Below are positions 10,726 to 11,294 of a stretch of DNA of 32,856 nucleotides, piece by piece. The notes under the pieces were generated by a model. The model was given only the letters and a program-made list of their open reading frames with translations. It was not told the origin of the DNA and did no database searches. The position numbers were made by a program, and so were the translations under genes. The first letter of the stretch is position 1. Each line of letters opens with the position of its first letter. Source of the stretch: Promethearchaeota archaeon (lineage in GTDB: Archaea > Asgardarchaeota > Lokiarchaeia > Sigyniarchaeales > SOKP01); assembly GCA_013375475.1 (NCBI GenBank), contig JABXKD010000039.1:1-32856 (forward strand). The letters are read 5' to 3'.

Positions 10726-11181
10726 ATGGAAAATAACTTTAAAATCTTAATGTTTGCTTGTTTGAAATGAGGGTATTCTGCTGCGGATTTAGCTGGAGTT
10801 TCTCGAATGAAATATACGGCTTCTGTCAAAATTATAAAAGTAAAGTGCACCGGAAGAATTGATTTAAAACACATCTTATATGGGATAAAAGCTGGAGCCG
10901 ACGGAGTGATGATTGTTGGTTGACGACCAAATGAGTGTGAGTTCAAGCAAGGTAATTTTACCGCTCAGCGACATGTTGATTTAGCTAATAGAATATTGGA
11001 CTCAAGAGGATATGGAAATCAAAGAGTAAATATGTATTGGTTAAGCGGTGCAGAGGCTGATAAACTAGTCAAAAGTGTTGAGGATTCTTACGAAAAAATA
11101 AAGAAATCTGGTCCCAATCCGATAAAACCCACACAAGTTGAAAAATCAAAGAAAAAAACAGTAAACTCTCTCGTAGGATGA
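10726..11181 (+). CDS. mvhD: MvhD/VhuD-type [2Fe-2S] subunit, selenoprotein (151 aa, 2 Sec)
   Basis: ATG 10726 after GGAGGT. Reads MENNFKILMFACLKUGYSAADLAGVSR...KCTGRID...GADGVMIVGURPNEC. TGA at 10768 and 10921 align with CCNWCSY and GCHIGDC of the paralogue at 18308. Confidence 0.92.
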
Positions 11182-11217
11182 TTCCTATAAAAAAATTATA
11201 GTTATAGGATGACTTGC
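11173..11217 (+). promoter_or_regulatory. Eukaryote-like SECIS element (Lokiarchaeal type)
   Basis: GUAGG-AUGAU-UCCUAUAA-[AAAAAUUAUAG]-UUAUAGGA-UGA-CUUGC: tandem GA core, perfect 8-bp upper stem, adenine run in the loop, 5-bp lower stem. It lies at the 3' end of the two TGA-containing genes. Confidence 0.82.
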
Positions 11218-11294
11218 CTCGCAATGGAATGGGAGAGAAATTAAATTTTTATTATAATATAATTTTTATAAATAAATAGGGAAAAGTATGAACT

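Follow-up and report, generated by a model that had tools for sequence, protein, structure and literature searches.

A conserved lokiSECIS downstream of vhuD and its probable service to six UGA codons of an archaeal hdrA-vhuD gene pair

Introduction

The closest described system is the lokiSECIS of Mariotti et al. (2016; PMC4989117), for which the text of that article gives a single copy downstream of VhuD that is common to HdrA and covers up to six UGA codons over ~2 kb. According to the text of their survey, Huang et al. (2024; PMC11227280) extended the lokiSECIS to hundreds of Asgard genomes, and the texts of both articles (PMC4989117, PMC11227280) record no SBP2 in such genomes. In the main texts of the lokiSECIS literature, we found no experimental assay of Sec insertion. 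The lokiSECIS is the best candidate for an evolutionary link between archaeal and eukaryotic selenocysteine decoding, and hdrA-vhuD is the most extreme proposed case of one SECIS for many UGA codons, across a cistron boundary. Selenoprotein P has two SECIS elements and one reading frame. The hdrA-vhuD pair resembles it in that many UGA codons would be recoded from the 3' end of one mRNA, but it has one element and two cistrons.

We analyzed an hdrA-vhuD locus in a 32,856-nt stretch of the genome of a Promethearchaeota archaeon (contig JABXKD010000039.1, here called the window). A sequence-only reading of this DNA had proposed a single eukaryote-like SECIS, located 3' of vhuD, for the four UGA codons of hdrA and the two of vhuD, and had noted that such kink-turn (K-turn) elements are known from Lokiarchaeota, which is true of the lokiSECIS as presented in the text of PMC4989117. 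The proposal was supported, since the element is conserved and the sole strong one; from this we infer Sec insertion and action across the cistrons. We interpret the RNA at positions 11166-11237 as a lokiSECIS (Asgard; Promethearchaeota, Loki lineage) that would act on the six UGA codons of hdrA and vhuD, with a probability of about 0.85. The element is real and well conserved, it is not new, and the main interpretation has already been published (Mariotti et al. 2016, PMC4989117); the finding at this locus changes nothing that specialists do not already hold. What the locus adds is a clean example, conserved throughout, whose six UGA codons are 257-2352 nt from the element, together with a relative that has seven, and the comparative set sharpens the structural model with respect to the K-turn pairs, the inclusion of the closing helix and a small 3' hairpin in the conserved unit, and the overlap with the stop codon.

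The gene pair and its in-frame TGA codons

The two genes and the positions discussed below are as follows.

8781 to 10721, plus strand: hdrA, heterodisulfide reductase subunit A-like, 646 codons and a TAA stop (translation)
8826-8828, 8925-8927, 9000-9002 and 9375-9377, plus strand: in-frame TGA codons of hdrA, predicted Sec residues U16, U49, U74 and U199
10710 to 10725, plus strand: GGAGG-type motif in the end of hdrA, TAA stop and 4-nt spacer (10722-10725), read from the sequence
10726 to 11181, plus strand: vhuD (mvhD, frhD), hydrogenase delta subunit of the FlpD family, 151 codons (translation)
10768-10770 and 10921-10923, plus strand: in-frame TGA codons of vhuD, predicted Sec residues U15 and U66

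According to Pfam, the hdrA product has FAD/NAD-binding and 4Fe-4S domains, and the vhuD product matches PF02662 at 1.8e-41. The spacer between the genes is indeed only 4 nt long, as had been noted from the sequence, and a script could resolve it at 25 orthologous or paralogous loci, in 22 of which it measures 4-7 nt. The GGAGG motif is a putative ribosome-binding site for vhuD and, along with the 4-nt spacer, suggests a single mRNA and coupled translation for hdrA-vhuD. The named relatives with orthologous loci are Promethearchaeota MAGs.

Under one alternative, the in-frame TGA codons do not encode selenocysteine, being either pseudogene lesions or codons reassigned to another residue. We consider this hardly credible for several reasons. 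(i) The six codons lie exactly on conserved Cys positions, since they align with Cys in Cys-type paralogs; both vhuD positions hold Cys in 10 of 12 paralog matches and TGA in the other 2. (ii) All four hdrA positions are kept as TGA in 20/20 orthologs, and vhuD orthologs with two TGA codons are widespread; one ortholog carries seven UGA codons. (iii) TGA closes 207 of 1641 long frames and is therefore an ordinary stop in this genome. (iv) Most of the Sec machinery is present in the genome, including SepSecS (380.9 bits, above the cut-off), two selD genes with one TGA each, and PSTK-like (167.8 bits) and EFSec-like (226.3 bits) genes that score below curated cut-offs of models built on other lineages. 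The observation that favors the alternative is that tRNA-Sec was not found in the 288-contig assembly with the Rfam model or standard aragorn; the latter detects only 23 tRNAs, so the tRNA set of the assembly is clearly incomplete. Relaxed aragorn returned nine doubtful tRNA-Sec calls, four of which were checked with Rfam and gave no match.

Layout of the element

Reading the sequence directly, we found all motifs of the sequence-only reading (AUGAU, both stem strands, the loop and UGAC) at the positions that it had assigned to them. The element is composed of the following parts.

11166 to 11172, plus strand: outer (closing) helix, 5' strand CUCUCUC, paired with 11231-11237 in the MFE and centroid folds
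11175 to 11176, plus strand: predicted short canonical stem of the K-turn, 5' strand, with the pairs A11175-U11214 and G11176-C11213
11177 to 11182, plus strand: predicted K-turn loop G-A-U, then the sheared-pair purines G11180 and A11181, then U11182 opposite U11210
11178 to 11182, plus strand: AUGAU, with the AUGA core at 11178-11181
11183 to 11209, plus strand: SECIS helix II with apical loop (sequence and fold); its main strands UCCUAUAA (11183-11190) and UUAUAGGA (11202-11209) form 8 Watson-Crick pairs
11191 to 11201, plus strand: apical loop AAAAAUUAUAG, 11 nt, starting with AAAAA and ending with AG
11210 to 11213, plus strand: UGAC on the 3' side of the stem
11210 to 11214, plus strand: 3' side of the core with U11210, G11211 and A11212 (partners of A11181 and G11180), the invariant C11213 and U11214
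11216 to 11228, plus strand: position of the 3' mini-hairpin, consensus N-CC-N [N-G-C-N-N] N-GG-N
11231 to 11237, plus strand: outer helix, 3' strand GGGAGAG (sequence and folds)

Helix II was counted at nine positions (11182-11190 with 11202-11210), namely a U.U at its base and the 8 Watson-Crick pairs; the first position is noncanonical in 15 of 31 vhuD loci. The pattern of a K-turn (canonical stem, 3-nt loop, tandem sheared G.A/A.G pairs) is present at the sequence level and, taken with the literature on eukaryotic SECIS elements, points to K-turn geometry at 11175-11214. The lower stem GUAGG/CUUGC that had been proposed can be drawn in the window sequence, but it is one register off and is not conserved; the conserved register is G11176-C11213 and A11175-U11214. 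The mini-hairpin is weak in the window copy, in which only C11217-G11227 and C11218-G11226 pair, U11219/U11225 form a mismatch and the loop is CGCAA, and the MFE structure lacks it. The vhuD reading frame closes at TGA 11179-11181, the UGA of the AUGA core, and the next in-frame stop is the TAA at 11188-11190. In 26 of the 31 vhuD loci, the TGA at +1 of AUGA is the first non-Sec stop of vhuD.

Model searches and folding

An Infernal-type model search, one of the checks suggested in the sequence-only reading, recovered the element: the covariance model R1, built from five copies in this genome that include the window element itself, scored it at 57.6 bits (E = 1.1e-11; window, filters off), and the next match had 18.1 bits. 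The match of the window element to the SECIS model exceeds chance. In the whole 3.92-Mb genome, for which 150 of 3711 first-look candidates were scored, R1 retrieved five elements at 45.5-57.6 bits, followed by a match at 20.4 bits. The five were also candidates of a loose descriptor scan of the genome that returned 136 rows, mostly noise, and from which we kept those that combine 9-10 stem positions with GA or AA and with a loop of 10-11 nt rich in A; they were confirmed by R1. Six other descriptor candidates (C209, C230, C285, C242, C110 and C113) were dropped, since they lie in ordinary coding sequence or lack a TGA-containing ORF. Beyond this genome, 132 of 151 genomes of the class had R1 matches, as did all 126 genomes sampled from the window's family (126/126).

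Folding of the 78-nt region gave -19.0 kcal/mol (z = -2.87), a value equaled by 1 of 200 shuffles; for the wider 111-nt stretch, z is only -1.73 and 10 of 200 shuffles are as good. The SECIS families of Rfam gave no match at the gathering score in the window, nor at E up to 10 in 10900-11500 and 8700-11300. This agrees with the text of Mariotti et al. (2016; PMC4989117), in which lokiSECIS elements are said to escape the existing SECIS tools.

Conservation and covariation

The hairpin is kept at orthologous loci. The extended covariance model R2 has a match directly 3' of vhuD in 31/31 loci (the window, 29 orthologs and one paralog) and matches 40/40 further elements, which were themselves chosen from R1 matches. 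AUGA does not vary in alignment A3 or A4, nor across the 34 aligned elements, and all alignments show GA (or AA) and, right after it, a C that is invariant. The covariation check proposed earlier for orthologous loci revealed compensatory changes in the stem. In A3, 92.9% of the helix II cells are paired, 8 of 9 pairs show double changes and 0/500 shuffles reach the score; in A6, the corresponding values are 94.4% and 9/9 pairs, and over the entire element 89.8% of cells are paired versus 66.1% in shuffles and 37-51% with slid partners, with double changes in 18 of 19 pairs. The pair counts of A3 and A6 are inflated by the fitting of these alignments to the R1/R2 models, and the genomes compared are kin, so that counts are not independent. 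In the MAFFT alignment A4, helix II is 93.1% paired.

Conservation extends to the K-turn. The G-C pair flanking its loop is invariant in two sets of elements (34/34 and 40/40), at the second canonical pair these sets have A-U 22 times each and U-A 3 and 2 times, respectively, the loop reads R-A-U across elements, and the tandem pairs are GA/GA (invariant) or GA/AA. The mini-hairpin was predicted by RNAalifold on A4 with no structure supplied and is 94.9% paired in the 40 further elements, its third pair being C-G in 15, U-A in 13, A-U in 4 and U-G in 4.

The outer helix CUCUCUC/GGGAGAG had been put forward as possible; it appears in the MFE and centroid folds and covaries across loci. Its sequence varies between loci with pairing kept, and changes on both sides occur in all 5 pairs. 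Its pairing of 60-81% is an understatement, because R2 and MAFFT placed several outer helices, that of the window included, two to three columns off register. RNAalifold did not predict this helix. A control based on the mean longest helix gave 6.50 for cognate versus 5.76 for noncognate flanks and was not discriminating, because many loci share the same helix and the DNA is rich in A and T; the support for the outer helix hence comes from the column counts and not from the flank control. Judged by these pairing patterns, the mini-hairpin and the covarying outer helix would make a three-way junction.

Association with TGA-containing genes

A search for the motif behind other genes with in-frame TGA, suggested in the sequence-only reading, located it in this genome after a second Sec hdrA-vhuD pair (C282), a peroxiredoxin-like gene (C229) and a small membrane ORF (C224). 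The family of the latter was aligned and scanned against Pfam, with no family near the cut-off. Four of the five strong matches in the genome thus have an upstream TGA-containing ORF, in unrelated families, and the fifth is at a contig start; among elements of other genomes, a recognizable TGA-containing ORF is located just upstream in 66 of 74. The SECIS type is exclusive to TGA-containing genes.

These data bear on a second alternative, namely, that the structure acts primarily at the transcript end or in processing, for instance as a terminator hairpin with a U-tract or an L7Ae-bound K-turn for mRNA stability, and that its association with selenoproteins is secondary. The closing helix is followed within ~30 nt by a run of 5 or more T in 21 of 31 vhuD loci, the genome encodes two L7Ae-family proteins, and the K-turn consensus would be bound by archaeal L7Ae, all of which is what such an element would call for. 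The unrelated TGA-containing genes upstream of the elements in this and other genomes argue against it, as does the conservation of AUGA, the A-rich loop and GA-C, which far exceeds the needs of a terminator. We therefore judge the alternative highly improbable in its exclusive form; the element may have a dual role as SECIS and transcript-end element.

One element for two genes

The six UGA codons lie 257 to 2352 nt 5' of the element, with the vhuD pair at 257 and 410 nt. The reach of up to ~2.35 kb given in the sequence-only reading is correct, since the farthest UGA is 2352 nt 5' of AUGA. One hairpin probably serves all six codons of the two adjacent genes. A third alternative holds that it serves only the two UGA codons of vhuD and that the four of hdrA are recoded by an undetected element in the hdrA or vhuD coding sequence, by a trans SECIS or by SECIS-independent read-through. 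Action across the cistron boundary is a proposal deduced from sequence, the distances of 1.8-2.35 kb are greater than any known to have been tested in archaea, and the scans were sensitive only to elements resembling R1 or an Rfam family; these points leave some room for this explanation. Nevertheless, we regard it as quite unlikely in view of the following data. (i) There is no separate SECIS inside hdrA or vhuD according to R1 (filters off), which detected nothing else above 18.1 bits in the window, and no Rfam SECIS in 8700-11300. (ii) At full-length orthologous hdrA-vhuD loci, R1 (filters off) found exactly one strong match in 20/20 (40.7-55.8 bits) and no second one, the next scoring at most 16.2 bits. 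(iii) RNAz detected no other conserved structure in these genes, as reported in the text of Mariotti et al. (PMC4989117). (iv) The hdrA stop is never TGA in the 25 resolved loci (TAA in 19, TAG in 6, TGA in 0), as expected if the hdrA UGA codons are recoded from downstream. (v) Three hdrA paralogs without vhuD (L051, L055 and L057) have the same SECIS type directly after hdrA, and hdrA therefore uses such elements.

Comparison with known elements

The window element agrees with the lokiSECIS, as described in the text of PMC4989117, in (i) the AUGA directly 5' of a stem of 9 positions with an 11-nt loop; (ii) the five leading A-rich nucleotides of the loop and its last nucleotide, a G preceded by A, in AAAAAUUAUAG; (iii) the GA directly 3' of the stem (G11211, A11212), then C11213; (iv) the single copy after vhuD, overlapping the vhuD stop in the window, and the very short hdrA-vhuD spacer; and (v) the multi-Sec HdrA at conserved Cys positions, with hdrA ending in UAA or UAG. 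In addition, the structure is kept by compensatory change among homologs. It differs by the U.U at the first stem position and otherwise in nothing essential compared with that text. The vhuD stop in the window is the core UGA, whereas the text of PMC4989117 gives this arrangement for VhuU.1 and, for VhuD, says only that UGA is among the stops. The main texts of PMC4989117 and PMC11227280, the figures and supplements of which may show them, make no mention of the 3' mini-hairpin, the K-turn register and its invariant G-C pair or the closing helix. Possible additions to current knowledge are this register, the three-way junction, the core UGA as vhuD stop in 26 of 31 loci and the ortholog with seven UGA codons.

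With type I eukaryotic SECIS elements, the window element shares the AUGA core with tandem G.A pairs, unpaired A residues in the apical loop, a closing helix I, the location 3' of the coding sequence and, presumably, action on distant UGA codons. In contrast, its helix II is shorter and Rfam gives no match at E up to 10; its mRNA would be polycistronic, and it overlaps a stop codon. We know of no counterpart of the extra 3' hairpin in eukaryotic SECIS elements. The euryarchaeal SECIS (Methanococcus type) is similar in its 3' UTR position and in the gene families served, and the Methanococcales VhuD SECIS also has AUGA and GAC/AAC, as stated in the text of PMC4989117; by description, it is set apart by its GAA_A bulge and GC-rich stems, which are not organizing features of the window element.

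The likeness to a simple K-turn (Kt-7 type) consists in the invariant G-C pair and the 3-nt R-A-U loop followed by G.A and A.G pairs. The attachment of a third helix on the nonbulged strand recalls the k-junction (Wang et al. [quoted passage not shown] The mini-hairpin starts two to three canonical pairs below the loop, after C-U(-N), and we therefore rejected this label in favor of a K-turn beside a three-way junction.

Proposed mode of action

In the lokiSECIS interpretation, hdrA and vhuD, 4 nt apart and with the GGAGG motif in the end of hdrA, would be transcribed as one mRNA. Just 3' of vhuD, the element would fold into a K-turn with a G-C/A-U stem, a G-A-U loop and tandem G.A/A.G pairs, bearing the 9-position helix with its 11-nt A-rich loop; the 7-bp outer helix would close it, and the small conserved hairpin would be on the 3' side. 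The element is proposed to bring in the Sec-specific elongation factor and its Sec-tRNA, either by itself or with the help of a so far hypothetical K-turn binder, as a eukaryotic 3'-UTR SECIS does, and ribosomes would thereby read the six upstream UGA codons of both cistrons as selenocysteine. The hdrA gene ends in UAA, which would not be recodable. The vhuD-terminal UGA inside the core would act as a stop, in our proposal because a ribosome at this position has already unwound the element. Of these steps, the cotranscription of the genes, the insertion of Sec, the reach across the cistron boundary and the stop at the core UGA are ones that we infer from the sequence.

As a tentative and rather doubtful extension, the functional lokiSECIS could be larger than the published hairpin, namely, a three-way junction of ~72 nt that unites the canonical K-turn (invariant G-C, R-A-U loop), the closing helix with its covariation and the conserved mini-hairpin, whose loop is of the Y-G-C-R-A type. 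This loop might be a second sequence-specific site for EFSec or for an unknown SBP2-like adaptor, and, in the vhuD group, the stop at the core UGA might let each terminating ribosome unfold and reset the element. If true, the second recognition site could help to explain how a single element can act on six or seven UGA codons in two cistrons.

Transcript context

Two further features follow the element in the window.

11238 to 11294, plus strand: AT-rich 57-nt spacer from the SECIS to the next gene, with runs of five T and a TATA-like stretch
11295 to 12776, plus strand: FrhB/FdhB-like iron-sulfur gene without in-frame TGA (ORF; Pfam PF04432 and PF04422)

Judging from its composition, the spacer may contain a terminator, a promoter, both or neither. 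A homolog of the FrhB/FdhB-like gene starts 44-60 nt past the R2 match in the 29 ortholog loci and 96 nt past it in the paralog, i.e., in 30/30 loci with downstream sequence. Given this synteny and the short, constant distance to the downstream gene, the SECIS may be internal to a longer transcript and not part of a genuine 3' UTR.

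The hdrA-vhuD pair and its UGA codons

The two genes to which the element is assigned are adjacent on the same strand, and Pfam places the hdrA product among the HdrA-like FAD/Fe-S proteins and the vhuD product in the FlpD family (PF02662, 1.8e-41).

8781-10721, + strand: hdrA, TGA read as U; 646 residues, stop TAA, selenocysteine (Sec) codons at residues 16, 49, 74, and 199
4 nt, read from the sequence: hdrA-vhuD spacer
10726-11181, + strand: vhuD, TGA read as U; Sec codons at residues 15 and 66

Measured in the 5' direction from the AUGA core, the distances to the six UGA codons are 2352, 2253, 2178, 1803, 410, and 257 nt. 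Two distances given in the sequence-only reading are borne out: hdrA, ending at 10721, is followed after only 4 nt by vhuD, starting at 10726, and a hairpin serving both genes would have to reach up to ~2.35 kb across a cistron boundary, the farthest UGA being 2352 nt away.

The host genome (3.92 Mb, 288 contigs, 32.5% G+C) carries numerous hdrA and vhuD paralogs. Among its 12 vhuD-like matches, 10 have Cys at both Sec positions and 2 have TGA (the vhuD of the window and a copy on contig C282); in the alignment, Cys-type hdrA paralogs likewise have Cys opposite the hdrA TGA codons. All four hdrA positions are TGA in 20 of 20 orthologs from other genomes. TGA terminates 207 of the genome's 1641 long open frames and is therefore a normal stop rather than a reassigned codon. 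A second cluster in the window (15198-18733, + strand), in which hdrA-like fragments accompany a vhuD-like gene, is of the Cys type without in-frame TGA at the Sec positions, so that Sec and Cys versions of the module lie 4 kb apart.

The hairpin is a lokiSECIS

Every motif that the sequence-only reading listed for the hairpin (11166-11237), including AUGA at 11178-11181 and helix II (11183-11190 with 11202-11209), is present where it was placed. The published features of lokiSECIS, the Asgard SECIS type, are all found: AUGA followed by a 9-position stem, GA 3' of that stem, an 11-nt loop that opens with five A and closes with G, and a location where a selenoprotein gene ends. An Rfam search of the window gave no SECIS match, in agreement with the statement in the main text of Mariotti et al. 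2016 (PMC4989117) that tools for known SECIS types miss lokiSECIS.

A descriptor scan of the genome, followed by a covariance model (R1) for which five copies served as the seed, yielded five such elements. R1 scored them at 45.5 to 57.6 bits, and the next match at 20.4 (150 of 3711 first-look candidates scored).

Element 1: 3' of the window vhuD, R1 match
Element 2: C282, 3' of a second Sec-type hdrA-vhuD pair; AA replaces GA
Element 3: C229, 3' of a peroxiredoxin-like gene with a U-x-x-C motif
Element 4: C224, 3' of a 64-codon membrane ORF with one TGA
Element 5: C50:45-85 (L022), + strand, 45.5 bits; 49 nt from the contig start

The selenoprotein gene of the C50 element is missing from the assembly, because only 49 nt separate the element from the contig start. 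A Sec-type [NiFe]-hydrogenase large-subunit C-terminus was not found in the genome, whose sole DPCxxCxxH motif, on C277, is of the Cys type.

A separate SECIS inside hdrA or vhuD would have been an alternative to a shared element. None was found: other R1 matches in the window reached at most 18.1 bits with filters off, and each full-length orthologous locus (20/20) had a single strong match, 3' of vhuD (40.7 to 55.8 bits; next, at most 16.2). Conservation is broad, with R1 matches in 132 of 151 genomes of the class and in 126 of 126 sampled genomes of the window's own family. A longer covariance model, R2, matched directly 3' of vhuD at 31 of 31 loci; the named relatives are Promethearchaeota, Promethearchaeia, and other Asgard-labelled metagenome-assembled genomes (MAGs). 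The expectation that the motif recurs behind other selenoprotein genes was confirmed by the C282, C229, and C224 copies; 74 elements in other genomes were classed by their upstream ORF. We conclude that the hairpin is real and that one eukaryote-like SECIS for the UGA codons of hdrA and vhuD is the right reading; from the sequences, we infer Sec insertion at these codons.

Upstream ORFs of the 74 elements from other genomes
vhuD type: 37
Small membrane ORF with one TGA: 22
Peroxiredoxin-like: 4
hdrA without vhuD: 3
Unresolved: 8

Further observations concern single loci. (i) At L051, L055, and L057, hdrA paralogs with a long C-terminal extension have a lokiSECIS directly behind them and no vhuD between; a truncated Sec-type hdrA on C281 of the host genome looks like this type. 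(ii) The weakest R2 match (L101, G145:C53:11258-12019; 46.7 bits) is without the 3' mini-hairpin consensus described below, and its upstream ORF, with three closely spaced TGA (…A-U-G-U-U-A…), is outside the vhuD, hdrA, peroxiredoxin, and membrane-ORF families. (iii) A 4-kb contig labelled as a Candidatus Sumerlaeota bacterium MAG (L184, CAZYWQ010000329.1) carries a vhuD ortholog at 78% identity and is probably a mis-binned Asgard contig.

Covariation and refined anatomy

Covariation upholds the proposed stem: in a model-fitted alignment of related genomes, helix II reaches 92.9% pairing and 8 of its 9 pairs show double changes; a MAFFT alignment that is not model-fitted gives 93.1% pairing. 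In 40 further elements, picked from R1 hits and outside R2 training, the whole structure is 89.8% paired (shuffles, 66.1%; slid partners, 37 to 51%), and double changes occur in 18 of 19 pairs, the alignment being fitted to the model and the genomes related.

Other copies do not preserve the lower stem GUAGG/CUUGC of the sequence-only reading. An invariant G-C pair (34/34 and 40/40 elements), adjoined by A-U or U-A, links the G two bases 5' of AUGA to the C after GA. These pairs point to a textbook K-turn pattern for the core. In the window, its canonical stem would be A11175-U11214 and G11176-C11213, its three-base R-A-U loop 11177-11179, and its tandem G.A/A.G pairs G11180.A11212 and A11181.G11211.

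Immediately 3' lies a small hairpin. Its consensus is CC-N-[N-G-C-N-N]-N-GG, and RNAalifold predicts it from the MAFFT alignment with no structure given. It is 94.9% paired in the 40 further elements, the third pair being C-G in 15, U-A in 13, A-U in 4, and U-G in 4. The window's copy is weak: it has two pairs, both C-G, next to a U/U mismatch, and is absent from the minimum free energy (MFE) fold. The outer helix considered possible (11166-11172/11231-11237) appears in the MFE and centroid folds, and its pairing is kept while its sequence varies between loci. In the resulting model, K-turn, mini-hairpin, and outer helix would form a three-way junction next to the K-turn. The label k-junction was rejected under the definition given in the text of Wang et al. 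(PMC4005666), since two to three canonical pairs part the loop from the third helix. In full-text searches, SECIS and "k-junction" came together in one paper, through a reference entry only, and no paper was found that combines SECIS, "three-way junction," and Asgard; no description of the 3' hairpin was found in the main-text wording of PMC4989117 and PMC11227280.

Stop codons and transcript context

The vhuD frame stops at TGA 11179-11181, which is also the UGA within the AUGA core; beyond it, the frame meets its next stop at TAA 11188-11190. In 26 of 31 vhuD loci, no in-frame stop other than the two Sec codons precedes the core UGA, and the remaining 5 have TAA or TAG 4 to 21 nt upstream of it. 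This pattern fits the minimal distance, proposed in PMC4989117, below which a SECIS cannot recode UGA. Among 25 resolved loci, hdrA stops with TAA in 19, TAG in 6, and TGA in none, and the hdrA-vhuD spacer is 4 to 7 nt in 22.

Pfam identified the two genes downstream of vhuD as FrhB/FdhB-like. An FrhB-like gene is next on the same strand at 30 of 30 loci with downstream sequence, starting 44 to 60 nt past the R2 match in orthologs. The spacer behind the element is AT-rich, with a run of at least 5 T within ~30 nt at 21 of 31 loci versus 1 of 372 equal-length coding windows, a weak control given that coding DNA is less AT-rich than intergenic DNA. Ahead of the FrhB-like ATG, this spacer also has TATA-like and weak AGG(U) motifs.

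Sec machinery

Genes are present for SepSecS (380.9 bits), for a PSTK-like protein of full length (167.8 bits, under the curated cut-off), and for an EFSec-like GTPase, whose score of 226.3 bits does not reach the cut-off of a model for bacterial selB. Two selD genes with one TGA each lie in tandem (C155:1918-2715 and 3424-4218, - strand). By this pair, the descriptor scan found a SECIS-like candidate (C155:1699-1662) with a self-pairing 14-nt loop, longer than in the five elements; it resembles the separate SPS-type lokiSECIS described in Mariotti et al. 2016 (PMC4989117). Neither an Rfam model nor standard aragorn found tRNA-Sec in the 288-contig assembly, and Rfam supported none of the four it was run on among nine doubtful calls of relaxed aragorn; this absence says little, as standard aragorn detects just 23 tRNAs there.

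Comparison with published work

The shared hdrA-vhuD lokiSECIS is of a kind already known. The main text of Mariotti et al. 2016 (PMC4989117) describes (i) multi-Sec HdrA with five possible positions, (ii) HdrA-VhuD tandems with very short spacers, (iii) a single lokiSECIS, only downstream of VhuD, common to both genes on a polycistronic mRNA, (iv) support of up to six UGA over ~2 kb by one lokiSECIS, (v) HdrA stops that are UAA or UAG only, and (vi) AUGA doubling as the stop of VhuU.1. Huang et al. 2024 (PMC11227280) report this arrangement in a set of 227 Asgard genomes that use Sec, and a 2026 review (PMC13188914) repeats it. The finding in the window is therefore a correct rediscovery; what the locus still offers is a clean test case and a sharper structural model. 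A fifth hdrA TGA at L136 (G023:C5:950-3750), at the residue 300 position, brings that pair to seven UGA, one above the "up to six" of Mariotti et al. 2016, still with a single SECIS. This position is a ferredoxin-domain Cys and is also TGA in the C282 paralog.

A small membrane ORF family beside lokiSECIS

The small ORF on the C224 minus strand (L020:1543-1734:-) stops ~10 nt short of the AUGA at C224:4531. It belongs to a family of 60 to 90 codons. Members combine a basic N-terminus and a single predicted membrane helix with an acidic linker and a run of glycines; Cys comes 1 to 3 residues after their only in-frame TGA, and the tail is short and hydrophobic. A full lokiSECIS follows each member. 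The layout may resemble that of eukaryotic SELENOK/SELENOS, which are single-pass proteins rich in Gly with Sec close to the end. With 22 of 74 loci, this is the second commonest gene class beside these elements (L020, L035, L039, L059, L040, L046, L054, L043, L060, L132, L113, L118, L126, L130, L098, L120, L102, L103, L127, L119, L106, and L105). A Pfam scan gave no family near its cut-off, and the family is absent from the selenoprotein lists in the main texts of PMC4989117, PMC11227280, and PMC13188914. An alignment was made of 15 members. The family could represent archaeal selenoproteins that have so far gone undescribed.
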